This document shows, in pieces, positions 3,927-17,615 of a stretch of 64,000 nucleotides of DNA (position 1 is the stretch's first letter; every line of letters starts with the position of its first letter). The stretch lies in NCBI GenBank assembly GCA_937890005.1, contig CALBZA010000026.1:3841-67840 (forward strand), written 5' to 3'. The notes beneath the pieces are model-generated. The model was not told the origin of the DNA, searched no databases, and saw only the letters and a list, made by a program, of their open reading frames with translations. A program made the position numbers and the translations under genes. Origin of the DNA: an uncultured Verrucomicrobia subdivision 3 bacterium (lineage in GTDB: Bacteria; Verrucomicrobiota; Verrucomicrobiia; Limisphaerales; DASXHY01).

Positions 3927-4561
3927 AAACTATCCTCATCATCGAAGATCAACCCGACATGCGGGAGAACATCGCCACCATTCTCGAAATGGAAAACTAC
4001 GCCGTGCTCACAGCCAATGACGGCGAACAGGGCCTCGCCATGGCGCGCGAGGAAAAGCCGGATCTGGTTCTTTGCGATGTGATGATGCCGAAGATGGATG
4101 GCCACGAAGTGCTCCGGCAGCTCCGGGAGGATCGCACGATAGCGGGGACGCCGTTCATTTTCCTGACGGCGAAGGGTGAGCGTCGCGATCAGCGCGCTGG
4201 AATGAATCTCGGCGCCGATGATTACCTGACAAAACCGGTGACAGCCACGGATCTGCTTGCGGCTGTTTCCGCAAGACTGGATCGCGAGCAGAAGCGACCG
4301 GCGGGCGAATTTCATCCTGACTTCAGCTCCCCCGCTCCGCTCGAGCGGACGTTGAATCTCACACCGCGCGAAGCGGAAGTGCTGCTCTGGGTGGCACAGG
4401 GCAAGAGCAATCCGGAAATCAGCGCGATCCTCGGCGCTGCAGAGAACACGATCAAAAAGCATCTCCAGAACATTTTCGAGAAGATGGGCGTGGACAATCG
4501 AAACGCCGCCAGTCTCCGGGCGATGGAGATTCTTTCCCAAACCGCTAAACTCAGCGCATGA
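3923..4561 (+). CDS. response regulator, NarL/LuxR family (REC + LuxR HTH)
   Basis: [16 protein letters not shown]...[13 protein letters not shown] forms the REC domain. The C-terminal [45 protein letters not shown] is a LuxR-type HTH. Its ATG overlaps the kinase stop (ATGA). Confidence 0.9.
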
Positions 4562-4698
4562 AATCGCTGACTGAACATCTCTGGTTCGAAACGCCCAATC
4601 GAAGGGATTACATCAACATCACCGACACCGTTGCGGCACTGGTTCGCAAGAGCGGCGTGCAGGAAGGCCTGTGTCTGGTGAACGCAATGCAAAACTAG
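4558..4698 (+). pseudogene. yjbQ: 5' fragment of a UPF0047/YjbQ-family gene, truncated by an insertion
   Basis: Encodes [44 protein letters not shown] followed by QN and a stop. The sequence continues seamlessly as [15 protein letters not shown]... at 15889. ATGA-coupled to the upstream response regulator. Confidence 0.8.
4682..4698. other. attL junction (host GAACGCA | ATGCA | element AAACTAG)
   Basis: Comparison with the attR junction at 15884-15900 shows a shared ATGCA. The arms differ immediately on either side. Confidence 0.65.
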
Positions 4699-4740
4699 CT
4701 ACTACCGGTTCACATTGCCGACTGGAGGGGATTTGCTGAT

Positions 4741-5016
4741 ATGAAGCCCGTGCTCAAAATTTCACTGTTCGGAGCAACGGCTCGCTGGAACACAATGCGC
4801 GGAAAGTGGATTTGCTCTGACAAAACGCTTCAGCGCCTGCTGAATCAAACAGTTCCAGATTTCAGCGTTCACACCCGATTCATGACAGACGGGGTCCAAG
4901 GAGAGGCAAAACGAGGGTTGATGAACTCGCCCTTGTGGGAGTCCGTAACCATTCTCAAGGAAGTTCCGGAAACCGCAGACAAACCTTCCGACGATCCCAA
5001 CGAACTCGACGGGTAA
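4741..5016 (+). CDS. hypothetical protein (first gene inside the element)
   Basis: 91-aa ORF with an ATG start. No recognisable motif. Confidence 0.4.
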   Translation: MKPVLKISLFGATARWNTMRGKWICSDKTLQRLLNQTVPDFSVHTRFMTDGVQGEAKRGLMNSPLWESVTILKEVPETADKPSDDPNELDG

Positions 5017-5083
5017 AATATCCTTGTCAGCGCGAACGTAAGAGTTCACAAGAGGTGCGGATTCAAATTGGGGAAAGGGAAAT

Positions 5084-5281
5084 ATGCCAAAGGAAACAGT
5101 TACGCGGAGCGCGACCATTCAAGTTGAGAAAAAGGAGATCACAGTCCAACTCGTTGAAAACCCTCGGGGAAGCTGTGTCCGATTCATTGAGAGCAATGCT
5201 GCCGGACGACGCAATTACCGGATGGTTCCGGCAAGTGGATTGTCGGAACTGACAAAAGTGCTTCAGCAGCTCTCAGCGTAG
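5084..5281 (+). CDS. PUR-alpha-like (DUF3276-like) single-repeat nucleic-acid-binding protein
   Basis: 65 aa. The segment IQVEKKEITVQLVENPRGSCVRFIESNAAGRRNYRMVPASGLSELTKVL matches the PUR repeat pattern (...f.fdlkeNpRG.flrI.E.....r..i.iP..gl.ef...l). A GGGAAAGGGAAAT SD-like stretch lies upstream. Confidence 0.5.
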   Translation: MPKETVTRSATIQVEKKEITVQLVENPRGSCVRFIESNAAGRRNYRMVPASGLSELTKVLQQLSA

Positions 5282-5318
5282 CATCACAAACGAGATTCCT
5301 CGTTTTCACATCTATCAC

Positions 5319-5366
5319 AAGGGTAGGCACCCGCGCCTTGCCCTTCCGTTCGCCCTGCCTACCCTT
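5319..5366 (+). terminator. strong hairpin after the PUR-like gene (11-bp stem AAGGGTAGGCA/TGCCTACCCTT, 26-nt loop, then TTTG)
   Basis: The inverted repeat was read directly from the sequence. The long C-rich loop is atypical for an intrinsic terminator. Confidence 0.4.
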
Positions 5367-5502
5367 TTGAATAAGTAGCGGCGCAAGTGTGCGGGAAGCC
5401 TGTTGCAGGATTACACGCTGCCGTTTGCGGGGGATACACATCACAAGGAGTTGATCCGGCGCTAACCGGAAAAAACATATTGCTGTTTCCTCCAAGATTC
5501 CT

Positions 5503-5751
5503 TTGAATCGGCCCGGTAGGAAAGGACGCGAATTGATCCAAGACGCAAAACGAAAACGGCTCGCAAAGGAGTGGCTAATCTTCATTGTGTCAGTTCTTCC
5601 CGGCACCCTGTTTGTCATCGTCGCAGCCATAGCTGAAGACGGCGCGCCGTTCTGGGCATGGACCTTAATTCCGTTTGGGCCTTACGCCCTGATCATGATT
5701 CTTCGCTCAATTGTCTGGTCTGTGAAAGTTCTGCGGTCGCGACAACAATGA
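5503..5751 (+). CDS. small membrane protein (2 predicted TM helices)
   Basis: WLIFIVSVLPGTLFVIVAAIA and WTLIPFGPYALIMILRSIVW are hydrophobic spans. The start is uncertain: TTG at 5503 or the in-frame TTG at 5533. Its stop overlaps the next ATG (ATGA). Confidence 0.45.
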   Translation: MNRPGRKGRELIQDAKRKRLAKEWLIFIVSVLPGTLFVIVAAIAEDGAPFWAWTLIPFGPYALIMILRSIVWSVKVLRSRQQ

Positions 5752-6320
5752 AGAAAGTTAAAATTCAAGATGATGCGGGACTTGCGTACTGCGTTGAGCA
5801 TGCAAGCGCCTTGATACAAGCAATTCACGATTACGCGGGACGTGATTTCACGAAGAAGTGGAAGCTTCGTTTTCCGCGGGGTTATGTTCGAACAGCACAA
5901 GAACAAAGACAACGGTTATCGTTTATTCCAGATGGCCCTTTGAAAGACAACATTGCTTATACGCTGATTCTTGCTGATACGACTCACTGGCTTCTGTGCA
6001 GAACTGATGTCACCCACACAATACAGGAACAGCTTATCAAACTTCACCTATTTCTCCTTGGCGCACTGGTTGAAAGCATTACGAAAGTCTATTTGTCTGG
6101 CAAATGTGGGAAGAGCTATAAAATCCGAACGGAATATCTAGTCACTCACCACCACATCACTCCCAAATTGAAAATCGATTTGGACTGGCTCTGGGATATG
6201 CGGAACAACATGCATTTGTTCCTCGTGCCCAATTCGGAGTATAGCTGTCCCGATTACACGGTCGCCAACTATAGTCGCGGAGTGGCGGCATTTCGTGAGC
6301 TAGTCAATGGGCTAGCCTGA
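5748..6320 (+). CDS. hypothetical 190-aa protein, AT-richer, translationally coupled to the membrane protein
   Basis: MKKVKIQDDAGLAYCVEH..., with ATG at 5748 inside track ORF 5658..6320. Contains DMRNNMHLF, which is HEPN-like but one residue short of Rx4-6H. Confidence 0.6.
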   Translation: MKKVKIQDDAGLAYCVEHASALIQAIHDYAGRDFTKKWKLRFPRGYVRTAQEQRQRLSFIPDGPLKDNIAYTLILADTTHWLLCRTDVTHTIQEQLIKLHLFLLGALVESITKVYLSGKCGKSYKIRTEYLVTHHHITPKLKIDLDWLWDMRNNMHLFLVPNSEYSCPDYTVANYSRGVAAFRELVNGLA

Positions 6321-6680
6321 GCATTCCATTTCCAAGCTGCGAAAGCGCTTCGGAAAAGGGTTCGCCCGACGTTCACAACTACAACATTCCTTGAGCTGCC
6401 TGGGCTAAAACACGCGTTTGTCTGCGCGGATCGGCCGTTCTAGCGTTTTCCCATTGGAAGTGCAGAGACTCGACTTGCACTAACAAACACACCGAACACA
6501 AGTGCTGCGTCACGGTCGTCCGCCTCCTCCTTGCCGCATTTTTCTGCCGCAGCTAGATAATGTCTGAAAGCGGGCAGCGGGCCTGATCCCCCGTTGAAGA
6601 TTCCCGGCTGGCGGTGGTTGTGTTTTTCATTATTGCCGCTTCTGCCGCTGGCCGGAATCGCTCGCGAACAAAATAATGAA

Positions 6681-7694
6681 ATGAACTACACGATTGAGCG
6701 GGACGAATCCGATTACCTCGACAGACAGTATGAGCTGGGGGCCCAAAAATTGGAGGACGAAGAAGCAGACACACGCTGCAGGTTCCAAGAAGTTGCCGTT
6801 TTCGATCCGAGCGAGGTTTCCAAGGCACTGCTGGAAAGCGAATGGGCTGACCTGCAAGGTCGTGAATCGGACGGAAGCCTTGAACAGCCCTCAAAAATAT
6901 CTAGCCCCTACATCAACGCGCCGCTGCCCCTCTTGGGAATCATGCACGGCGAGGACGTTCACCGCAGGAAAGCGTTTGAAAGGGAAGACCCACGTGATCG
7001 CAAAGCCTTCTGCAACTTCTTTCGTAGCTATGCGATTTGTTACTATGCACAGAACTTGTATCGCAAAACAGCAAAGGATGAAATGAACGGTCTGCGCTAT
7101 CCCGAGAAGACACCAACCGGCTTTAACAGGAACAATCCAAGGCATCGAGCGCTGGGCGCTGCGATGTTCGCGATGAATCGCGGCGGCGGCAGTGTTAAGC
7201 GAATCTTCGGACATTGGAACACGGCACGAGAATTCATGAAGGAGCGTCAGCTTGCCGAATGTGAGCAGGCACGTTTTCAGATTTCATTGAAGCTGCTTGG
7301 GCCGGAATACGATTTTTTGAGCCTGCGCGATCTTCGTGTGCTGATGGCTGTAAACTCGTGCATGGGTGAGGACGGATTCGGCACGATAAGCTGGCGGGTT
7401 CTATCGTGGCGCGCCGTGGGTGCAACGAACGAAGCGGGGCTAGAGTTGCTGGGCGTTAAGCCGCTTGGAAAGCATCAAGTGGAGAATGCCCTTGAGCGGC
7501 TGCAAAAGCATGGACTGATCCACCGCTTGGAAGTCAGGAAAGGGGTGGACAGTCGTGTTACCTTCGTTGCAAAAGGCACCATGTCGGAAAACGTGTTTCA
7601 CACGCTCGTTGCCGACAGAGTCTCCAAGGGCAAAGCTCGGCGTGGCGTGCTTCGGAATGGCAAACTCATTGTTCTTGGACGACTGGCGGAGTGA
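6681..7694 (+). CDS. hypothetical protein with a C-terminal winged-helix-like segment (candidate replication/regulatory protein)
   Basis: The track ORF 6594..7694 starts at a TTG; the first ATG is at 6681 (MNYTIERD...). The C-terminal LSLRDLRVLMAV...GKHQVENALERLQKHGLIHRLEVRKG looks like a wHTH. Confidence 0.5.
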   Translation: MNYTIERDESDYLDRQYELGAQKLEDEEADTRCRFQEVAVFDPSEVSKALLESEWADLQGRESDGSLEQPSKISSPYINAPLPLLGIMHGEDVHRRKAFEREDPRDRKAFCNFFRSYAICYYAQNLYRKTAKDEMNGLRYPEKTPTGFNRNNPRHRALGAAMFAMNRGGGSVKRIFGHWNTAREFMKERQLAECEQARFQISLKLLGPEYDFLSLRDLRVLMAVNSCMGEDGFGTISWRVLSWRAVGATNEAGLELLGVKPLGKHQVENALERLQKHGLIHRLEVRKGVDSRVTFVAKGTMSENVFHTLVADRVSKGKARRGVLRNGKLIVLGRLAE

Positions 7695-7720
7695 GGAACA
7701 TCCAACGCCCTGTTTCACGT

Positions 7721-7752
7721 GGTGCCTACCTGCGGTGCCTACCTGCGGTGCC
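7721..7752. repeat. 13-bp tandem repeat GGTGCCTACCTGC x2.5
   Basis: Read directly from the sequence. Lies in the intergenic region after the wHTH gene. Confidence 0.85.
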
Positions 7753-7756
7753 ATAT

Positions 7757-7780
7757 AATAAAAGCTTCAATAAAAGCTTC
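7757..7780. repeat. 12-bp tandem repeat AATAAAAGCTTC x2
   Basis: Read directly from the sequence. AT-rich, and adjacent to the 13-bp repeats. Confidence 0.85.
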
Positions 7781-7784
7781 CATA

Positions 7785-7815
7785 GCGCCCGCCGCTTTTT
7801 TGGCGGCGCGGGCGC
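7785..7815. other. GC-rich imperfect hairpin (GCGCCCGCCGC-T6G-GCGGCGCGGGCGC)
   Basis: Inverted repeat with a 2-nt bulge; the T-run sits in the loop. Confidence 0.5.
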
Positions 7816-7885
7816 TGTATGCGAAGAAGGAGAGAGAGATGTGTGTTTCCTCAGAAAAGCAGAAAACGCCAATTTGCTTAGGTGA

Positions 7886-8929
7886 ATGGAACGGAAGGAG
7901 GGAGAAGAACGAAAACACCAAATGAAAAATCTCCTTGCAGCCAAAACCAGAAAGAGCAAATTCCGCCTCATGACAAAGGAGAAAGCCAATTTGCAGCCAA
8001 ATGGAGAAGATGCTTCGTCTGAAGATGTGTTGCTTCCCACTCCCGAAGAACAACTGCAACGTCAGGAGCGCGAAAAGCGCGATGCGTTTGTGAGGCAGAT
8101 TGAGGGCTTTTTAGAGAATGATCCCGAGTTGCGTTCAATCGTGTTCCACCGGATTAAGGAAAATGCCCGTAAAAGGATTGAAACCCTCCGTAAAGGGGAA
8201 GCGATTGAAGAGATTCTCCAGATGCAAAAGCGCGAAAAGGACAACGCTAACGCGTTAGCGGTGCTTTCTCAAAGAATTCGGACAGGGACGCTCCAGGAAA
8301 AAACAAAAGCCCTCCAATCGCTCGTGGGCGAGATTGCGGACCGACAACAGAACATCGACAAAAACGAACGTGCCGCGGCGAACTCTATGAACTTGGCCGT
8401 GACGTATGCCAAAGAAATTGGAGACAGATTGCAGTTCGCAAAGGATCATTTGATTCCCGAAGGACAATACGAAAAGTGGGTTGAAGAGACATTTGACGGC
8501 ATTTTCAAACCTTCCACCGCTCGCCTCTATCGACAAATCGCCGCACCTCAGAATTGGAAAAAGATCGCAAAAAAGGTCAACACACCCCCGGGGTTGAGCC
8601 TGCGAGCGGCCCGCGCACTTCTCACGGACAAACCCGAAAAGCAGAGCAAATCCGAAATAGAAAAGACGCGCGCAAAGTTGGAAAAGAAAGCTTTGGAAAA
8701 GTTCCGCGAACTCATAGCTGGATGGCCCCCAAAGATGCTCGATGAAGTGACATTCTCCAACGCATGGTTTTGGGGAAGGCTCGACAAGGAGGCGCAAAAG
8801 CTCTGCAACCCCAGCGAAATGGCGAGGGAGTCGGCGAGGAACTTCCGTCGGTTGCTCAATGCTCAACGCCAAATGTTGAACGCCGGACAGTTTTCGCCAG
8901 CGGACCTATTGGAATCCGATTTTCATTAA
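7886..8929 (+). CDS. DUF3102-like coiled-coil protein
   Basis: 347 aa and K/E-rich. KDHLIPEGQYEKWVEETFDGIFKPSTARLYRQIA resembles the DUF3102 core (HGeW..Wle..f..s.rtA..ym). An alternative start is at 7922. Confidence 0.5.
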   Translation: MERKEGEERKHQMKNLLAAKTRKSKFRLMTKEKANLQPNGEDASSEDVLLPTPEEQLQRQEREKRDAFVRQIEGFLENDPELRSIVFHRIKENARKRIETLRKGEAIEEILQMQKREKDNANALAVLSQRIRTGTLQEKTKALQSLVGEIADRQQNIDKNERAAANSMNLAVTYAKEIGDRLQFAKDHLIPEGQYEKWVEETFDGIFKPSTARLYRQIAAPQNWKKIAKKVNTPPGLSLRAARALLTDKPEKQSKSEIEKTRAKLEKKALEKFRELIAGWPPKMLDEVTFSNAWFWGRLDKEAQKLCNPSEMARESARNFRRLLNAQRQMLNAGQFSPADLLESDFH

Positions 8930-8934
8930 ATACC

Positions 8935-9699
8935 ATGAGTTCAGAATCGAAGCCCACGGACCTACTCGGTCTCGCCCCTTACGGTGAAGCAGTAAAGTCT
9001 GCCACCGACAAGACTTTCGAAACGGCTCAGGCATTTCTCTACGCTTTGTGTCGCCCCGCAGCTGAAGAAGCGGGCTTGCTTTTCCGGGACCAGATACGCT
9101 TTTGGAGAGCGAAGAACCTAGCTCGGATCGCTGAGAAGGCTCAGGCATTCACAACTGTCACGCCTGAAGGTCTGCAATTGCAGGCTCCGCCAAGAGTTGT
9201 TCACGAGATCATCGAGCACGGTTCATGGTGCGAGCAGGAGGAGCTCCAAAGCATGTGGGCTGGACTCTTGGCCAGCTCCTGCACCAAAGATGGCGTAGAT
9301 GATTCGAGCTTACCATTCATAGACATATTAAAACGCATTACGTCAGCGGAGGCTAAACTTATAGAACATGTCTGCAAAAACTCGATCGTGGATGCCAGTC
9401 CTTCGGGTGTGCTTCGAGGCAGGTCTGTAGATTTATCCCTTGAGCAGATTCAGGCGATTACTGGATGGAAGGACAAGACTCTCGCGCAGGCTTGTATCGA
9501 ACACCTAGTTTCCCTCGGGTTGTTGAAGGAGCAACCTGCCATTTTCTTCAACGGAACACCGAAAGTTCCCTGGATTCAACCAGAACCGTTGACTCTCCAT
9601 TTCTATGTCCGTTGCTGTGGTTCCAGAATAGCCACAAAACAGTTTTTTGACGAACTAGCAAGTAAGACCGGAAAGACCGCTTTTTCGGAGGCGGAGTGA
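8935..9699 (+). CDS. Abi-alpha family (DUF4393/PF14337-like) protein
   Basis: The ATG at 8935 lies within track ORF 8764..9699. Matching segments are MSSESKPTDLLGLAPYGEAVKSATDKT..., AEEAGLLFRDQIRFWRAKNLARIAEKA, and EELQSMWAGLLASS...FIDILKRITSAEAKLIEHV. Together they fit the family pattern as I recall it. Confidence 0.6.
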   Translation: MSSESKPTDLLGLAPYGEAVKSATDKTFETAQAFLYALCRPAAEEAGLLFRDQIRFWRAKNLARIAEKAQAFTTVTPEGLQLQAPPRVVHEIIEHGSWCEQEELQSMWAGLLASSCTKDGVDDSSLPFIDILKRITSAEAKLIEHVCKNSIVDASPSGVLRGRSVDLSLEQIQAITGWKDKTLAQACIEHLVSLGLLKEQPAIFFNGTPKVPWIQPEPLTLHFYVRCCGSRIATKQFFDELASKTGKTAFSEAE

Positions 9700-9705
9700 G
9701 TAGTC

Positions 9706-9873
9706 ATGGCAGAGAAGAATTACATTACGTATCGCAAACACCTCGAATATTGTGCGCTAATATCTGCGTTTGGAACAAACAGTTCAGCCTCCCTGATGCA
9801 AACGCGTGTCGCGCGGGAAAACGTGCAGGAAGGGCGGGCAAAGGGGTACTGCAGGGCGGAAAACAAGCATTGA
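9706..9873 (+). CDS. possible 55-aa ORF downstream of Abi-alpha (below the track cut-off)
   Basis: My own translation gives MAEKNYITYRKHLEYCALISAFGTNSSASLMQTRVARENVQEGRAKGYCRAENKH. No motif found, so coding status is uncertain. Confidence 0.2.
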   Translation: MAEKNYITYRKHLEYCALISAFGTNSSASLMQTRVARENVQEGRAKGYCRAENKH

Positions 9874-9923
9874 TCACACGTTAAGGACTACGTGTAGGAG
9901 GCATCTGGCTGGATTAGATTTTA

Positions 9924-9947
9924 GATGCGTTTTTGGATGCGTTTTTG
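9924..9947. repeat. 12-bp tandem repeat GATGCGTTTTTG x2 upstream of the small serine recombinase
   Basis: Read directly from the sequence. Confidence 0.85.
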
Positions 9948-10062
9948 GAACACCCTGAACACGCTCCCCTTTGGTCTCTACAGAACACCTCACGGCAGCA
10001 GGACAAAACGACCGTTTACTTCACGACTGCCTGCCAGATACTCACTCTCGTAAAATGCGAGC

Positions 10063-10731
10063 ATGAAACATTGCGTCGCGTATTTCAGAGTATCAACAAA
10101 GCAGCAGGGAATGGACGGCCTCGGAATGGAGGCACAGCGAACAGCGGTCGCACAGTTCCTAGCATCACGGAACCTCCACTTGCTTGCGGAGTTCGCAGAG
10201 GTGGAAACAGGGAAGCGGAAGGATCGTCCAGAACTCACAAAAGCAATCGCACTGTGCAGGAAAGCAAAGGCAACGCTTGTGATCGCAAAGCTGGACCGGC
10301 TGGCACGCAATGCAGCGTTCGTGCTGAATCTCCGGGATTCCGGCGTGGACTTTGTTGCGTGCGACATGCCGGACGCAAACAAGCTCACAATCGGCATCAT
10401 GGCACTAGTGGCGGAACAGGAGCGGGATTGGATCAGCGAACGCACAAAGGCAGGACTGGCAGCGGCAAAGCGCAGGGGCACCCAGCTTGGCAATCCCCGC
10501 ATCGCAACAGCTCGCACGCTAGCAATCGCTGCAACGAAGGAGAAAACACGGGCATTCACCGACAGGCTTGCGCCGGTGATCGCAGAGATTACGGCTGCGG
10601 GTGTTACGACTCTCAAAGGAATCGCACAGTGCCTCAATGCGCGTGGATTCAAAACACCACAGGGCGCAGCATTCACAAGGCAAGCGGTTGCGAAGCAGAT
10701 GAGACGACTTCGCAAAGAACGTCAGGCATAG
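10063..10731 (+). CDS. small serine recombinase (resolvase/invertase type)
   Basis: The N-terminus MKHCVAYFRVSTKQQGMDGLGMEAQR contains the catalytic Ser motif. Also has LVIAKLDRLARN and ERDWISERTKAGL. Confidence 0.9.
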   Translation: MKHCVAYFRVSTKQQGMDGLGMEAQRTAVAQFLASRNLHLLAEFAEVETGKRKDRPELTKAIALCRKAKATLVIAKLDRLARNAAFVLNLRDSGVDFVACDMPDANKLTIGIMALVAEQERDWISERTKAGLAAAKRRGTQLGNPRIATARTLAIAATKEKTRAFTDRLAPVIAEITAAGVTTLKGIAQCLNARGFKTPQGAAFTRQAVAKQMRRLRKERQA

Positions 10732-10779
10732 CTTCTAAACCAGTTGCCGCCACTCGTTCGTCTCGCGCATTGTCGCAAC

Positions 10780-11202
10780 ATGGACGAGACGGCGGAAGAG
10801 ACGCAGGACAGGGCCGACATTCGGAAACAGGGACGCAGGGCGCAGAAGCGCAAGAACATCACACTCTCCAAGCAGTTTTCTCCCCGATTCTGGGAACAGT
10901 CCGATTCTCGCGTTGCGGTGGTCCGCGCAATTCGCCGCCGGTATGAACTTTTGAAGCAGCACGCAGGCGGCGAAGAATCCTATCAGCGCGATCTACTCTG
11001 CCAGCGCACTGCTTTCATTTCCGTGATCCTCGAAACGCAGGAGGTTGAGGCGGCTGAGGGTGGCTCACTGGACATGAGCGTCTATGTGCAGGCCATTAAC
11101 TGTTTATCGGGCCTGCTCCGCTCCTTGGGGCTGGAACGCCGGATCAGGAACGTGACAGACCTCAGCGCCTACCTTGAGAAGAAACGGAGCGCAGCGCAGT
11201 GA
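10780..11202 (+). CDS. putative terminase small subunit (assigned by position only)
   Basis: ~140-aa basic protein immediately upstream of TerL and overlapping its start. No diagnostic motif. Confidence 0.35.
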   Translation: MDETAEETQDRADIRKQGRRAQKRKNITLSKQFSPRFWEQSDSRVAVVRAIRRRYELLKQHAGGEESYQRDLLCQRTAFISVILETQEVEAAEGGSLDMSVYVQAINCLSGLLRSLGLERRIRNVTDLSAYLEKKRSAAQ

Positions 11203-12698
11203 ACATCCTCGATGCAATCAGAGACGAGAACTTGTTCCGGCCGTTTCTCGGTGATGATTTGAGCACGTGGAAGTATTGGGGAATTGCATTGCGTGCGCTT
11301 TACGGGATCCCAATCAAATCACTTAAAGGACGAGCCTTCGTGCAGCAATGCACAGGCAGGGATGCCAGTGAGCTTCCAGCAGAAGGATTTCAATCCGCGC
11401 TGTTCCTCGTAGGCAGACGGAGTGGCAAATCTCGTATCGCGGCAGTGATCGGCGGTTTTGAAGCGCTGTTCGGTGGACATGAGAAGCGGCTTGCGAAGGG
11501 TGAAACCGGAATCATCCCTATCATCAGCCCTTCAAAATTCCAGAGCGGAATCGTTTGGAAATACATCCGCGGTCTTTTTGATGTTCCACTGCTGAAACAG
11601 GAAGTGGTCAACGAATCCGAGCGTGATCAAACGATTACGCTTCAGAACGGAATCGAAATCCGAATTCTCACAGGCGATTGGCGCACTGTGCGCGGGCCGT
11701 CGGTCGTTTGCGCAATTATCGACGAGGTATGTTTTTTCGGTGTCACAGAAGAATCGAAGGTGCGCAGCGACACTGAACTGGTTCGCGCTTTGCGCCCGGC
11801 ATTGCTGACGACGAAGGGGAAGTTGATTGGCATTTCCTCGAAATATGCGCAGAAGGGGTGGGCCTATGGCACTTGGAAGAAGCAGCACGGAGCGAACAAG
11901 GGAGATGCGCAGTTCAATCCGAAATGGCGCACACTCGTTTGGGACACCGATTCCCGGACGATGAATCCCACGCTGTCGGAAGCAGAGATCGCAGCGGCAT
12001 ACGAAGAAGACCCAGCGGCAGCTCGAAGTGAATTCGGCGGCTGCTGGCGCGAAGACATTGAAGAATTTGTTCCCCGATCCATGATCGAATCGCTTGTTGC
12101 TGCAAACAGGCGAGAACTGCTTCCGCGTTCACTTTCGTATTCCGCAGGCGTGGATTTGAGCGGTGGACGCGGCGACAGCGCCGCATTGTGCATCGTTCAC
12201 AAGGAAGAGCGGCGAGTTGTGCAGGATTTCATAAAGGAGTGGCACGCACCCTTCAACCCGTATTCCGTAGTTTCGGAGATTGCGAGTGAGTTGAAGCGTT
12301 GGAATCTCCGTTCAGTGCGCGGGGACAACTACGCCGGCGACTGGCCTGTTCAGGCGTTTCGCGAACACGGAATACGTTACCTTCCAGCTGATCGCAGCAA
12401 ATCAGAACTCTATCGCGAAATGCTGCCTGTGTTGTGCGGCGGCAAAGCATCAATCGAACTGCTCGACAATGCCACACTGGTAAATCAGCTCGCATCGCTG
12501 GAGCGCAAAACACGCAGCGGGGGCAATGATGTGATTGACCACCCCCGAGGCGGAAAGGACGACGTTGCGAACGCCCTAGCTGTTGCGTGCAGTGCAGCAT
12601 CGCAAAAGCGGCTCCGAGCGGGTGGACTGTGGCGGATTGATCTGAACGCTTCCGAAGAATTTCCAAGCCGTCTTGCAATTCTCCAACAAACCCAATGA
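11199..12698 (+). CDS. terL: terminase large subunit
   Basis: Walker A-like VGRRSGKSRIAA and Walker B-like VCAIIDEVCFF. Nuclease-half motifs GVDLSGGRGDSAALCIVH and VIDHPRGGKDDVANALA. GTG start overlapping the upstream stop. Confidence 0.75.
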   Translation: MNILDAIRDENLFRPFLGDDLSTWKYWGIALRALYGIPIKSLKGRAFVQQCTGRDASELPAEGFQSALFLVGRRSGKSRIAAVIGGFEALFGGHEKRLAKGETGIIPIISPSKFQSGIVWKYIRGLFDVPLLKQEVVNESERDQTITLQNGIEIRILTGDWRTVRGPSVVCAIIDEVCFFGVTEESKVRSDTELVRALRPALLTTKGKLIGISSKYAQKGWAYGTWKKQHGANKGDAQFNPKWRTLVWDTDSRTMNPTLSEAEIAAAYEEDPAAARSEFGGCWREDIEEFVPRSMIESLVAANRRELLPRSLSYSAGVDLSGGRGDSAALCIVHKEERRVVQDFIKEWHAPFNPYSVVSEIASELKRWNLRSVRGDNYAGDWPVQAFREHGIRYLPADRSKSELYREMLPVLCGGKASIELLDNATLVNQLASLERKTRSGGNDVIDHPRGGKDDVANALAVACSAASQKRLRAGGLWRIDLNASEEFPSRLAILQQTQ

Positions 12699-12704
12699 AC
12701 GATT

Positions 12705-13175
12705 ATGAATGACAATCCTGTGATGATGAAGGTCCGAGCGTTCGAGGAACGGCACGGTTCCGAGAAGTATTCTGACGGCGCTGCGTGGTTTTACGCGGAC
12801 GGTGCGATGCGTGACATGAATCCGATCGGCATATTGATGGAGCCGCCTGACTCCGGCACCGACGAGGGGGAATACAAAATGGCCCTGCACAAACTCAAGT
12901 TCGCGCAGCTCAAACTCCAGACCGCCGTTTCGGAGTTCGACCAGCTGAACACGCGGCTGGCACACACGATTCCGATGGACCCGGATGCGGATTTGGCAGA
13001 GCTAAAGCGTCTCGCAAAAGTGGTAGAGAGCCGGAAGAAGCTTGTGACGGAGGCAGAGGAAGGCGTTGCTAATACCCGCTGGGGTCGCCGTCGAGCCGAA
13101 CTGAGGCGAGCAGACGAGGAACAGCGTCAGCGCATGGCTGACTTCAACGAGAAGCGCCGTTCCATCCGAGTGTAA
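12705..13175 (+). CDS. hypothetical coiled-coil protein
   Basis: 156-aa ORF, same strand, tightly packed after TerL. Confidence 0.5.
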   Translation: MNDNPVMMKVRAFEERHGSEKYSDGAAWFYADGAMRDMNPIGILMEPPDSGTDEGEYKMALHKLKFAQLKLQTAVSEFDQLNTRLAHTIPMDPDADLAELKRLAKVVESRKKLVTEAEEGVANTRWGRRRAELRRADEEQRQRMADFNEKRRSIRV

Positions 13176-13191
13176 CGCAATCAAATCACTT

Positions 13192-13485
13192 ATGAATACG
13201 ACTAGAGTTCAACTGCCGGACGGACGACTGCTCACCATCGAGGGTGGCACCGCAGAAACCACCGCAGCATTGCTGAGAAACCACTATCTCACGCCAGCTG
13301 CAACACAGGAACGTGAAGCCCTTGCGACTAACGAGGAACCAATGACGATGCCGAGCCTCCAAGATGCGCTTCAAAACCAGCAGCATCAACGCATTCGCAC
13401 CGTGGTGCAGAACCTTCCGCGTCCGGTTGTGAATGAAACAGACGAGCAACCGCTGGAAATGCCCCGGATGAAGTTCTCTGAGTGA
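13192..13485 (+). CDS. hypothetical protein
   Basis: 97-aa ORF with an ATG start. Confidence 0.45.
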   Translation: MNTTRVQLPDGRLLTIEGGTAETTAALLRNHYLTPAATQEREALATNEEPMTMPSLQDALQNQQHQRIRTVVQNLPRPVVNETDEQPLEMPRMKFSE

Positions 13486-13778
13486 TCTTCAGTTCCGGCG
13501 TCAATGCGATTGCCGTATTGCACGCCGTAGCTATTTTCAGAGTGCCAGCTTGTTTCTGTTTGGAGCTGGTGAGTTACCGACAGCCGTCCCTTTGACTTTC
13601 CACAATGGGACGGCGCTTTTTCCAGCTTCCTCCGTGTCCGTTTCTGCGTTCCGGCCCCAAATGCGCTGTCATGAGCGGGATCTTACTGCTTAGGTCCAAG
13701 GTGGGGCATTGGCAGGTCCAGGCAGGGTGTTTACACGTTGCCGGGGAACAGCGCACACAAGCGGAGGATTGTTCGCTG

Positions 13779-14258
13779 ATGTTCTTAAAAACCATCAATA
13801 CCGTTGCTCACGCGATGCTCATGGATGCACAAATGCCAGTGGTGCTTACAGGCACCGCAGACGGCAATGAAGCCCCTGCATCGAAGGTAAAGCAAATGAA
13901 CAAGAACACTGCGCCGAAGTTCCAAACCCCACACGAAAAAGCCAAATCAGCTCCGCGTCCCAAGCAGCCGGTGAAAGCAAGAGCGAAGAAGTCGGCGAAA
14001 TCCATCAAACCGCGGAAGGGCAAGTTGGGGCTGTTGCTCGGTCACTCGGTTGTCTCCGTGATCCGAGCAATGGGCAAGGCAGGCTGGACATACGAAACAG
14101 CCCGTGCTGCACTGGACAAGGCCGGGATTGAAGCTGCAACGCATACCGTGAAAGTTGGGCTGAAGCGGGGACGCGACGGACAGAAACGCATTGCGCCTCT
14201 CACGGAAAAACAGCTTCAGAGCCTCAAGGTGAAACCGACAACAGCACAGAAGCAATGA
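13779..14258 (+). CDS. lysine-rich basic protein, ATGA-coupled to the large serine recombinase
   Basis: The ATG at 13779 is preceded by GGAGGA. Contains a K-rich tract KAKSAPRPKQPVKARAKKSAKSIKPRKGK. Its stop overlaps the integrase ATG. The track ORF begins earlier, at 13605. Confidence 0.45.
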   Translation: MFLKTINTVAHAMLMDAQMPVVLTGTADGNEAPASKVKQMNKNTAPKFQTPHEKAKSAPRPKQPVKARAKKSAKSIKPRKGKLGLLLGHSVVSVIRAMGKAGWTYETARAALDKAGIEAATHTVKVGLKRGRDGQKRIAPLTEKQLQSLKVKPTTAQKQ

Positions 14259-15937
14259 GCAGGGGAAAACAGAAAATACTCCGTTTCGCCGCGCTGCGCC
14301 GTGTCTCTACGGAGCAGCAAGAGAAGGTTGGTGAATCGCTCCAGACACAGACAAAGGACATCGCATCAACTGTGAAAGACTTGGGTGGTGTCGTTGTCGA
14401 GTGGTATGGAGGGCAGGAACACGCAACACCGGGCCACGAGAAGCGGGAAGTCGAGCGATTGCTCCACGATGCACAGCGAAACCGGTTTGATGCCTTGATC
14501 GTGGCGCATCCGGACAGGTGGAGCCGCGATAATTCTTCCAGCCGCGCAGGACTGGAACTGTTCCGCGAGCACGGCGTGAGGTTCTTTGCTGGTGCAACGG
14601 AATACGACCTGTTCAATCCGGATCACGAGCTGTTCCTCGGGATTTCAGCCGTCGTCGGACAATTCCAAGCGCGCCAGCAAATGCTCAAGTCGATGAAAAG
14701 CCGCATCGAACGGGCAAAGGGAGGAGTTCCCACAGGGGGACGCCTCCCGTTTGGACGTGTTTTCGTGCGCAGCAAGGATAGGCGAACGGGCCATTGGGAA
14801 ATTGATCCAGCGAAGCATGAGATGGTGAGGGACTGCGCCAAGCGTTATCTGAAGGGTGAATCGCTCGTTGATCTAGCTGCCGAATATAACGTGAATGCGT
14901 CGAACCTTTGGAAGGTGCTTACGAAGGTGAGCGGCTCCAAATGGAAAGTTGAATTCAGCTCCAAGGTGCTCAATCTGCACGAGATTGTAGAACTTGATGT
15001 GCCTCCTTTGCTAGACAAGGAGACAATCGAGGCAATTTGCAGCAAAGCAGAAGCAAATCGCACCTACACGCACGGGCATATCAAACATCGGTATCTGTTC
15101 TCCCGGATGATTTTTTGCGCTCATTGCGGCTATGCGATGATGGGACAGACGAACCAGAATACAAAGCGCTACTACAGACACGCGCACACTGAACGAGATC
15201 GCGTCTGCAACGGCGCACCAAGAAAGGGATGGATCCCGGCTGATGCGATTGAGGACAACGTGATGCGCCACCTGTTTGAAACCTTCGGCAATCCGGTCGC
15301 AGTGCAGCGAGCAATCGAGGAAGCGACTCCAAACAGCGACAGGATTCAGCAAGCGGTCAAACGCAAGGGGTTCGTGGAGCAGGAACTGGAGACGATTGAG
15401 AATTCCCGGCAGCGAATTCTCAGATTGATTGTGAAGGGGACGATTGAAGAAGCAAACGCAGAGACGGAGCTTAAGAAGCTCAAAAACCGCGAACAGAAGC
15501 TAACCGACGAGCGAACACGGCTCGAAGATGAGCTTGCGCATGTTCCATCGCGGGAAGTGCTAAAATCGGCCTCAAGGAAGATCGCCGGAAAGTTCCTTCA
15601 ATACACCAGTGCCAAAACTTGGGCAAAAACTCGGCAGGCGAACGAAGCGTTCGATGCGATGAGCTTTGAGGAGAAGCGTGCGCTCTGTGAATCTGTGTTC
15701 GCCGGAAAAACAACCGACGGACGGCGCACGGGCATCTCCATAGCGTGGGACAGCACTGGAAAGAAGTGGCGCTATCGAATCGAAGGATTGTTGATAGATG
15801 CAGAAGGCCCGATCAGTGAGGGCGCATTTGTTTTCGGGGCACCGCAGGGTCAGAAAGCTCTAGTGGGTAAATTTGCATCGCAAACGCCATGCACATCACG
15901 GCAAGCGTTTACATCAATGACGCCGAGGACGGATTAA
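14255..15937 (+). CDS. large serine recombinase (integrase)
   Basis: 560 aa. The resolvase domain has [11 protein letters not shown] and [13 protein letters not shown]. It is followed by a recombinase domain, a zinc-ribbon-like CAHCGYAM...C segment and a coiled coil. The last 14 codons read across attR into yjbQ DNA in another frame. Confidence 0.9.
15884..15900. other. attR junction (element AAACGCC | ATGCA | host CATCACG)
   Basis: See attL. The single a/c difference just left of ATGCA fits host versus element arms. Confidence 0.65.
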
Positions 15938-16179
15938 TTCACGATTACGACGTCTGGCTGGAGAAACTCGCGCCCCACGCGCCGACGTCGCAGTATCATC
16001 ACAATCGCACCGGCGAGGACAATGCCGACGCGCACATGAAACGCCAGATCATGGGACGGGAAGTCGTCGTCGCGATCACCAAAGGAAAGCTCGACCTCGG
16101 ACCCTGGGAACAGATCTTCTACGGCGAATTCGACGGCCGCCGCCGAAAACGTGTTCTCGTGAAAATCATTGGCGAATAG
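15889..16179 (+). pseudogene. yjbQ: yjbQ 3' portion, copy A (96-codon ORF beginning at the internal Met)
   Basis: [96 protein letters not shown] is a typical UPF0047 C-terminal core. Confidence 0.8.
15900..16178 (+). repeat. direct repeat copy A (279 bp, 3 mismatches versus 17337..17615)
   Basis: Base-by-base comparison at a constant offset of 1437 bp. The differences are at 15903, at 15930 (gac/gat), and at the stop third base (TAG/TAA), which lies just outside the repeat. Confidence 0.9.
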
Positions 16180-16225
16180 CACTGTGTAATTTGCGGCGAG
16201 TTGCCGAATTCATCAGCCCGCGACC

Positions 16226-16242
16226 GCGACTCTGCGAGTCGC
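16226..16242 (+). other. hairpin GCGACTC-TGC-GAGTCGC downstream of copy A
   Basis: Read directly from the sequence. No T-run follows. Confidence 0.4.
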
Positions 16243-16304
16243 AGCGGGGTGGATCGCCGAATTGAATCTGAACAACCTCAACCTTTGAAAGCGAACGGTG
16301 CGCC

Positions 16305-17336
16305 ATGACACTCAAACAAATCTATAAAAAGACTTGCTCCGAATATTTTTCAATTCCAGATGAGGAAACAGAGTCTGCATTCGGCCAGCGCAAGCCGATA
16401 GGAGGAGATGTTCTGAACAGAAGCCCAGCCAAAGAAAAGTTCTACCAAGAGCATCTGCGCTACACGGAAATTGTGCCTTCTATCGAACACACAGAGATAG
16501 GTGAGGACGTCGTGTTGCGACGATTCATGGATTTGCCAAAATTCATCGACCTCATTGTCAATAAGCGACTGTTACTGCCGACTGTCAAAAAACTGCAAGA
16601 GGGAGACCCACATGAATGTGAGGCATCACCAGACTACAGCAGAATTTCAGATGATGCTTTGAAAAAAAGTATTTTGGATTTGGCAGAGGAATACGTCACA
16701 GAAGCAGACTTGAATTTATGGCGCCCGCTACAGTTTGACTTGCTTGTCCTTGGCCAACGCCAACCAGTCACCAAGAGCTCTGTGAGTGAAGTCCTAGACA
16801 AGATGTCTCAAGACGAGCTTAGGCAGGCTGCGTGGTGTGTTGAGCACAGGAGATTGCAAGATGAGCTTTGCTGCAATTGTTGGTATGATAGCGAACTGGA
16901 ATCCGATGCCATGTGGAGGCTCTATTGCGACCGTGTAGGAGTTTCCATCGCAACCACGGTAAAAACTTTGCAGAGATCGATTAAATGTGAAGTTCCAATG
17001 ATATTCAAAGACCGCATGAAACTGCATCTCGCAAAGGTGACCTACAGCGATGCTTCAACAGTTTCAGATGCCCCATCGTGGTTGATTAAGAGGTCCGCAT
17101 TCAGACATGAACATGAAGTTCGCTTTTTCATCGATTATCCATTCCCTCGAAACGAAGGTTTTGTACTAACAGTTGAACCTTTGACACTGATAGAGGAAAT
17201 GACGGTTTCTCCCTATGCACCGCGCTGGCAGGCTAACGCAATTGAAGCCATGGCCCGCCGAATTCTAGGAGACGGACTGAAAATCAAAGCATCAAAGCAT
17301 CGCAACTCACTGAAGCCGCCTTGGCCTCAACGTTAA
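16305..17336 (+). CDS. DUF2971-like protein
   Basis: 343 aa, AT-richer. Matching segments, in DUF2971 motif order, are [67 protein letters not shown] and [15 protein letters not shown]. Confidence 0.6.
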
Positions 17337-17615
17337 GGCGAGCGTTTACATCAATGACGCCGAGGATGGATTAATTCACGATTACGACGTCTGGCTGGAG
17401 AAACTCGCGCCCCACGCGCCGACGTCGCAGTATCATCACAATCGCACCGGCGAGGACAATGCCGACGCGCACATGAAACGCCAGATCATGGGACGGGAAG
17501 TCGTCGTCGCGATCACCAAAGGAAAGCTCGACCTCGGACCCTGGGAACAGATCTTCTACGGCGAATTCGACGGCCGCCGCCGAAAACGTGTTCTCGTGAA
17601 AATCATTGGCGAATA
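17337..17615 (+). repeat. direct repeat copy B
   Basis: See copy A. Confidence 0.9.

Follow-up and report, generated by a model that had tools for sequence, protein, structure and literature searches.

An integrase gene completed across its own attachment site: alternative C-termini of a large serine recombinase in an element inserted in yjbQ

Taken as an analogy, the closest described precedent for the locus reported here is phage Mx8, whose attachment site (attP) lies within the integrase coding sequence and where integration yields a recombinant int gene that ends in new 3' sequence (PMC6070905). The phage and prophage integrases (IntP and IntX) are described as having different C-termini, with reportedly altered recombination (PMC6070905, citing Tojo 1996 and Magrini 1999). 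In this study, we analysed a stretch of 64,000 nucleotides (hereafter, the window) from an uncultured Verrucomicrobia subdivision 3 bacterium (assembly GCA_937890005.1, contig CALBZA010000026.1, positions 3,841 to 67,840). The window contains an 11,202-bp element inserted in the host gene yjbQ, and the last gene of this element, int, codes for a large serine recombinase (Int). Our main finding is that int reaches the crossover without a stop codon of its own, and therefore the DNA across the crossover, whatever it is, completes the open reading frame (ORF). In the chromosome, this is out-of-frame yjbQ DNA; in the circle, it is the left end of the element.

As in Mx8, the crossover falls inside the int ORF, and the prophage and free forms of the protein differ at the C-terminus, both in the reconstruction of the window element and in a natural pair of circular and integrated copies (L040 and L116). 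The Mx8 enzyme is a tyrosine recombinase and the enzyme described here is a serine recombinase, so the locus is an analogue of the Mx8 architecture and not a member of it. The swap in Mx8 replaces on the order of 100 residues, whereas here all folded domains stay in place and a tail of only ~20 residues, predicted to be disordered, is exchanged. Also unlike in Mx8, the crossover is located exactly at a codon boundary, and the last codons of the gene are a half-site of the recombinase.

An earlier note on this DNA, made from the sequence alone, had likened the locus to the mycobacteriophages BPs and Brujita, which we consider less close than Mx8. In these phages and in Mycobacterium abscessus prophages, attP lies inside the repressor gene and the viral and prophage C-termini differ; in the BPs type, a stop near the junction truncates the prophage form, and a degradation tag resembling ssrA is present on the viral form (PMC4557955, PMC8092301). 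The likeness is conceptual only. In both cases attP is inside a gene and the C-terminus differs by state, but the attP described here crosses a serine recombinase gene and not the repressor gene of an element with a tyrosine integrase. Furthermore, no common C-terminal degradation tag was found in the 15 free-form tails compared in this study, the ends of which are unrelated (..GDLLI, ..SGEQE, ..DGGAK, ..YATRR, and others). The "suicidal" archaeal integrases of the SSV type likewise have the recombination site within the integrase ORF, and integration alters the gene (PMC7253208, PMC8371274), which in SSV is split into two non-functional pieces (PMC7253208). Unlike these split genes of tyrosine recombinases, int of the window keeps 543 of 563 residues, with every predicted domain, in one ORF.

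With the serine integrases phiC31, Bxb1, A118, and SV1, the enzyme shares the resolvase domain, the architecture of zinc ribbon plus coiled coil, and the integration into a protein-coding gene. Its attachment sites are quasi-palindromic, ~50 bp long, and have only the polarity-setting central dinucleotide in common, as in canonical serine integrases. In sib retroregulation of phage lambda, a 3' RNA signal linked to int depends on the integration state, and in Tn4451 a promoter is formed at the joint of the circle, so that expression of TnpX depends on the state of the element. In these systems and in the present one, what lies in physical linkage with the recombinase gene depends on the state of the element; there, the effect is on RNA processing or transcription, whereas here it is on the sequence of the protein. 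The precedent described for serine integrases is an attP between genes (PMC4068962), and what their unstructured C-terminal tails do is said to await testing (PMC11795197). A literature search of incomplete coverage, which is weak evidence, returned no report of a serine integrase ORF that is completed across its own attP.

Boundaries of the element and position of the crossover

The integrated element spans positions 4683..15884 of the forward strand; all its ORFs lie on this strand, and int is the last of them. The two parts of the interrupted host gene were located by tblastn and translation. The N-terminal part of yjbQ (4558..4682, forward strand) ends in the left copy of the dinucleotide AA (4681-4682), and its truncated ORF terminates at a TAG (4694-4696) within the element. 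The C-terminal part, from the B' arm onwards, extends over 15885..16179 on the same strand, and its first 53 bases provide the tail and the stop codon of the integrated int gene. Rejoined, the two yjbQ/UPF0047 parts encode a protein of 139 amino acids, the match of which to PF01894 covers the entire model (1.5e-37).

An empty site was found in a contig of public run X4, which joins position 4680 to 15883 and skips exactly 11,202 bases. Five ambiguous bases at this joint (AACGC) fit both sides, and beyond them the contig tracks the right-hand sequence. Contigs of runs X2 and X3 have an unbroken yjbQ and lack the element, and the identical integrated element is present in two other assemblies (L032 and L033). 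The region 4683-15884 is therefore a discrete, recently mobile insertion.

Both junctions share the block AACGC[A/C]ATGCA. The earlier note had taken the ATGCA of this block (15889-15893 and 4687-4691) as the recombination core. The core is instead located 6 bp upstream, where the first two bases of the block, AA at 15883-15884 in the right junction (attR) and at 4681-4682 in the left junction (attL), are the site of crossover. The AA of attR consists of the third base of the codon for Gln543 (CAA) and the first base of codon 544, and the crossover falls between these two int codons; the same two bases begin the Asn codon of ..LVNAMH.. in yjbQ. On its left in the rebuilt attP is the P half-site (15859..15882, forward strand), corresponding to int codons 536-543 (..LVGKFASQ), and on its right the P' half-site (4683..4706, forward strand; CGCAATGCAAAACTAGCTACTACC), which in the circle corresponds to int codons 544-551 and in the chromosome holds the TAG that ends the truncated yjbQ ORF.

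To locate the crossover, attP was rebuilt for seven elements, each from its two junctions, and the P and P' arms were compared register by register. In the window, the arms are identical at 16 of 24 positions in register 0, with AA as the dyad centre, and at no more than 8 positions in any shifted register. An identity of 13-18/24 in register 0 was obtained for six of the seven elements, compared to ~6/24 in shifted registers, the exception being L010 (9/24 in register 0). Moreover, arms matched their own partner better than the arms of other elements, and the observed sum was reached by 2 of 5,040 permutations. The natural pair L040/L116 led to the same position: attP is identical to attR through TT and to attL from TT on, and TT is the sole sequence that attP has in common with the bacterial attachment site (attB). 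This TT is the reverse complement of the AA in the Asn codon of ..LVNAMH.. and is homologous to the AA of the window.

If the crossover lay inside ATGCA instead, the free-form tail would start with TPCK..., and the symmetry of P and P' around AA would be incidental. The perfect 5-bp identity of attL and attR is in line with this alternative, as are the intact yjbQ contigs of X2 and X3, which read AACGCAATGCAC and thus have A at the polymorphic base, like attL of the window. On the other hand, the host side reads AACGCC, matching attR of the window, in X4, which has the neighbouring 1.44-kb insertion of the window and is therefore the closer lineage, and also in the close relative L120 (YjbQ 89-96% identical). 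Hence, the A at 4686 belongs to the P' arm of the element. Since X2 and X3 carry A, the polymorphic base is not conclusive by itself; the dyad centre, the TT of the natural pair, and the strand exchange of large serine recombinases at a central dinucleotide (PMC3783163) all speak for AA, and we regard a crossover inside ATGCA as very unlikely. The attP junction of the window would read ...TTTGCATCGCAAACGCAATGCAAAACTAGC..., with A at the polymorphic base (4686), after exchange at AA, and ...CGCAAACGCCATGCAAAAC, with C at this base, after exchange in ATGCA.

The same attB was found to be used in both orientations: seen in the sense of int, the core is AA in P0077, L001/L002, and the window, and TT in ~35 other loci. 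This illustrates how polarity is set by the central dinucleotide alone. For P0063 and P0078, the orientation is apparently forward, in another reading frame.

The integrase and its two C-termini

In the integrated state, int occupies 14255..15937 of the forward strand, at the right end of the element, and encodes 560 amino acids. Its assignment to the serine integrases, as in the earlier note, was confirmed by matches to the Pfam families Resolvase (PF00239, 2.3e-14, residues 16-155) and Zn_ribbon_recom (PF13408, 9.1e-10, residues 281-340). The catalytic residues R16-V17-S18-T19-E20-x-Q22 were invariant among 27 homologues. The Recombinase domain (PF07508) was not matched in Int of the window at E<=0.01; an AlphaFold2 model of the homologue P0019 shows a folded alpha/beta region (161-262) where this domain is expected, and long helices (354-474) between the zinc-ribbon strands, at the position of the coiled coil. 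Several features of large serine recombinases are thus present, namely a resolvase domain with a serine nucleophile, a zinc ribbon with an inserted coiled coil, and a quasi-palindromic attP that shares only a central non-palindromic dinucleotide with attB. At E<=1e-10, 522 integrase homologues were retrieved, mostly from metagenome-assembled genomes of Planctomycetota and Verrucomicrobiota. No candidate for a recombination directionality factor turned up in the family searches, which included no dedicated test for one, and the ORF directly upstream of int (13605-14258) had no family match.

Residues 1-543 of the integrated Int are encoded by the element, and residues 544-560 together with the stop codon come from host yjbQ. 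The earlier note had recognized that yjbQ DNA is read here in a different frame and had counted 14 such codons; with the crossover at AA instead of ATGCA, the number of host-encoded codons is 17. When the circle is closed, the int frame runs through 4682-4741 to a TGA at 4742-4744, which results in a free form of 563 amino acids with a tail of 20 residues (coding sequence 4682..4744, forward strand, from the rebuilt circle junction). As the note had stated, this TGA overlaps the ATG (4741-4743) of the first left-end ORF, orf4741 (4741..5016, forward strand, 91 amino acids). The free-form tail begins with TQC..., and not with TPC... as had been read from a core at ATGCA.

The exchange of tails was observed directly in the natural pair. 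L040 is a metagenome contig of 9,401 nt with a terminal overlap of 127 nt and therefore represents a circle of 9,274 bp, and in L116 this 9,274-bp element is found integrated in yjbQ, differing from L040 by two mismatches. Up to the crossover both proteins read ..CDRH; beyond it, Int of L040 ends with LQSTSSYTLPFLLRCPASGEQE and Int of L116 (P0052) with SPAPDPRERRSRGPRLRPAA, each followed by a stop codon. The note's two central statements, that attP lies inside the int ORF and that the integrated and excised states encode different C-termini, thus hold. The int gene also reads through an intact attP in a second circle, L114 (66-nt overlap), and in L115.

For comparison, ~120 homologous loci were fetched. 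In more than 35 independent loci, the 3' end of int adjoins a yjbQ fragment that is broken at the same codon. Most of these loci have the opposite arrangement to the window: int enters yjbQ at its N-terminal part, in antisense, and TT is the core in the sense of int; AA was found in the window, L001/L002, and a few others. The int stop preceded the core in none of the ~40 loci with a recognisable half-site. It started either at position -1, as T/TGA or T/TAA made from the second core base and two host bases, or 20-152 nt past the core, and the integrated tails (0-51 amino acids) were unrelated to each other. That the stop is made at or past the core explains why homologues are annotated either as ending in ..LVTKxAxx or with unrelated tails of 7-51 residues. 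Across the family, the last 8 int codons are the P half-site of attP. The DNA consensus of the half-site, ..AGTAACTAAATCTGC..(7 nt)..core, is found in the 3' ends of int and, as the reverse complement, in the non-coding P' arms; the LVTKxA protein motif is therefore at least partly dictated by the binding site of the recombinase.

Conservation of the free-form tail and competing explanations

A total of 15 free-form tails was available, 11 of which were rebuilt from attL and attR (L005, L008, L009, L010, L016, L024, L035, L057, L082, L101, and L120). In addition to the tail of the window, three were read directly from an intact attP (the circles L040 and L114, and L115). All 15 tails contain [P/H/R]-F-x-L, followed in 11 of them by a Gly two residues past the Leu. 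The motif is located 9-14 residues past the core, at offsets of 10, 11, 12, or 14 codons, that is, with whole-codon differences. Its DNA columns read C-N-N T-T-Y N-N-N Y-T-N N-N-N G-G-N, with five kinds of Leu codons (TTA, TTG, CTG, CTT, and CTC) and Phe kept as TTY. In the window, the motif is R-F-T-L-P-T-G-G at 4706-4729 (R-F-T-L at 4706-4717, G-G at 4724-4729); the free-form tail of L120 (LYAQPSYYRFQLSV) closely resembles that of the window. No antisense gene covers the motif in the free-form tails. We rejected antisense coding as the reason for its conservation, since the yjbQ copies borne by some elements end beyond the motif, at 83-89 nt from the core, and the window lacks an antisense ORF at this place. 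The three-periodic conservation and the in-frame length changes suggest selection on a translated peptide and not on a DNA motif. According to the earlier note, homologues should reveal which of the two tails is kept; this comparison showed conservation of the free-form tail and none at all of the integrated tails.

We consider it likely that attP straddles the end of int and that recombination switches Int between a complete free form and a prophage form. In the chromosome, host yjbQ DNA adds 17 arbitrary residues to Int. In the circle, the P' half-site and the left end of the element would add 20 residues with [P/H/R]-F-x-L(-x-G), a conserved peptide that the prophage isoform would have lost. 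Integration would also cut int from an operon that runs in a single direction round the circle. The boundaries, the crossover, the family-wide lack of an own stop, the tail swap in the natural pair, and the conservation of the tail are established; that the tail peptide is translated and important for Int is what its pattern of conservation suggests. By analogy with IntP and IntX of Mx8, we favour the view that the peptide may tune the activity, stability, or partner binding of the integration-competent Int. A more tentative idea, which we hold with low confidence, is that [P/H/R]-F-x-L-x-G might serve as a built-in sensor of the integration state, with only the circle making a complete integrase and the peptide governing how active or stable this integrase is or which partner it chooses.

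Several observations weigh against a functional switch at this site, in addition to the A at the polymorphic base of X2 and X3, which taken alone is compatible with a crossover in ATGCA. Integrated tails vary from 0 to 51 amino acids without a sign of harm, which fits a dispensable tail. In the AlphaFold2 model of P0019 in its free form, the confident fold stops near residue 505 and the predicted local distance difference test score (pLDDT) is <50 in the half-site region and the tail, over the last ~30 residues, so that a structural role cannot be pointed to. The 15 tails are related by descent, and their counts overstate independence. A pattern scan of metagenome contigs for the attP junction of the window (GCATCGCAAACGCNATGCAAAACTAGC) gave 0 matches, and the contigs of 8 public runs contained empty sites and no go-back (circular) joint, at an element depth of only 2-5x (fragments in runs X1, X7, and X12-X14). 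Finally, the status of orf4741 as a gene is unproven because it has neither a match in Pfam, PHROG, or PADLOC nor a homologue in related elements.

Part of this evidence would also be expected if the arrangement were a neutral by-product, attP next to int being just a compact module, the tails functionless, and the conserved stretch a signal at the DNA or RNA level, for instance an extended attP, a site for an accessory factor, or a leader for the next gene. The arbitrary integrated tails and the predicted disorder fit such an explanation, as do the free-form tails, which continue for 2-45 amino acids past the motif with no common C-terminus, and the downstream context, which varies between a small same-strand ORF and an antisense yjbQ copy. 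A nucleic acid signal is difficult to reconcile with free third positions and five synonymous Leu codons, or with a motif that keeps the int frame while its distance from the core shifts by whole codons. Moreover, the P arm contains no mirrored copy of the motif, which is therefore not a component of the symmetric recombinase site, and the conservation extends over elements that differ in their downstream genes. We therefore regard a by-product as possible but doubtful. It is most improbable that the element is a decaying remnant in which int is out of use and reads into yjbQ only as a leftover of an old insertion. This would agree with the lack of a circular form of the window element in the contig scan and the 8 runs, as well as with the lack of recognisable capsid genes and the many unannotated ORFs. 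In contrast, the int ORF is intact and has all invariant catalytic residues, identical copies are present in three assemblies, a precise empty site occurs in a strain ~99.5% identical, and homologous elements were found as circles.

A further claim of the earlier note was that only the circle joins int and orf4741 by an ATGA overlap. This was reproduced in the reconstructed circle of the window element, where a Shine-Dalgarno-like GGAGGGG (4724-4730) precedes orf4741 inside the tail coding region, but it does not extend to the family. In 4 of the 15 elements, the stop codon of the free-form int shares bases with the start codon of a small ORF on the same strand: by ATGA in the window (91 amino acids), L009 (65 amino acids), and L040 (64 amino acids), and by GTGA in L114 (71 amino acids). 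The ORFs of L009 and L040 are homologous (40% identity, 4e-14), and orf4741 is unrelated to both; as a conserved partner of int, it was rejected for want of a homologue in other elements. In other elements, the free-form int is followed by a yjbQ copy that the element carries in antisense orientation. Coupling across attP thus recurs without being a rule of the family and is probably a consequence of dense gene packing in a circle with one-way genes. Elsewhere in the window, ATGA overlaps join the ORF 13605-14258 to int (14255-14258) and a response-regulator gene (3794-4561) to yjbQ (4558-4561).

The element is co-directional with the host operon (histidine kinase, response regulator, yjbQ). 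Consensus scans of both junctions revealed neither a promoter-like site nor a terminator-like site on the forward strand, with the reservation that either consensus may not apply to this phylum; two minus-strand terminator-like matches at the left junction were at shuffle expectation. As no forward-strand terminator-like site was found at attL, host transcription could run into orf4741.

Gene content, relatives, and significance

The element is likely to be integrative and of the phage-satellite type. In addition to int, the annotation of its ORFs revealed an Abi_alpha/PDC-S47 protein (8764-9699) and a pair resembling the small and large terminase subunits, TerS (10744-11202) and TerL (11199-12698; phrog_2, 1e-16), all on the forward strand. 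No capsid genes were recognisable by Pfam and PHROG annotation, and many ORFs were left without any annotation. Many related elements of 7-11 kb have kept the TerS/TerL/int module, and two members of the family were found circular (9,274 and 10,757 bp). Taken together, these features suggest that elements resembling phage satellites form a family in Planctomycetota and Verrucomicrobiota. A collection of viral contigs contained only two distant relatives (22-23%).

Sister integrases target other conserved genes (L018, L043, L061-L063, L066, L079; L013, L056; L014, L070). One of these targets is a Ser/Thr protein kinase, entered at ..PYFVMEYV/N.., where the stop is again T/TGA or T/TAA at the junction; an NHL-like gene and at least one more gene are further targets. 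Many elements in the opposite orientation carry their own intact yjbQ, ~70-90 nt from the P' end (L005 3216-3629, L010 2991-3404, L016 1451-1870, L035 2428-2847; also L008, L020, L028, and L054). This copy looks like a replacement for the disrupted host gene and also provides a fresh attB. Extra yjbQ fragments nearby (e.g., L005 13415-13546) suggest serial or nested insertions. A mini-element of 3.3 kb in L120 (8332-11625) consists of the integrase P0006 and two small ORFs and uses the same dinucleotide as the window element in the opposite orientation.

Next to the element, a segment of ~1.44 kb (15900-17613) has the 3' part of yjbQ on either side as a direct repeat of 277 bp (1 mismatch), with copies at 15907-16179 and 17337-17613. 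Its ORF 16305-17336 matches a candidate defence family (PADLOC PDC-S31, 4e-18) and, weakly, DUF2971. All four combinations of presence and absence of this segment and the 11.2-kb element occur in public data (window, L033, X4, and X2/X3). The right junction of the segment is not at the AA core.

Serine integrases are major tools for genome engineering, and the search for new ones draws mostly on integrated prophages. In the present family, proteins annotated from prophages have the wrong C-terminus, and the integration-competent form can be read only from a circle or a rebuilt attP. Mining pipelines should therefore check for int genes that span attP, the family being widespread in Planctomycetota and Verrucomicrobiota. 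The codons at the end of int double as the enzyme's own DNA-binding half-site, a constraint at the DNA level that explains, at least in part, the apparently conserved C-terminus LVTKxA. The locus is a natural case of recombination rewriting the recombinase and makes the role of unstructured C-terminal tails, a question of long standing, directly testable. If the peptide were indeed a sensor of the integration state, these elements would switch between an integration-proficient and a prophage form without, or besides, a separate directionality factor, and a serine integrase would possess a switch that acts at the protein level and is written by recombination.

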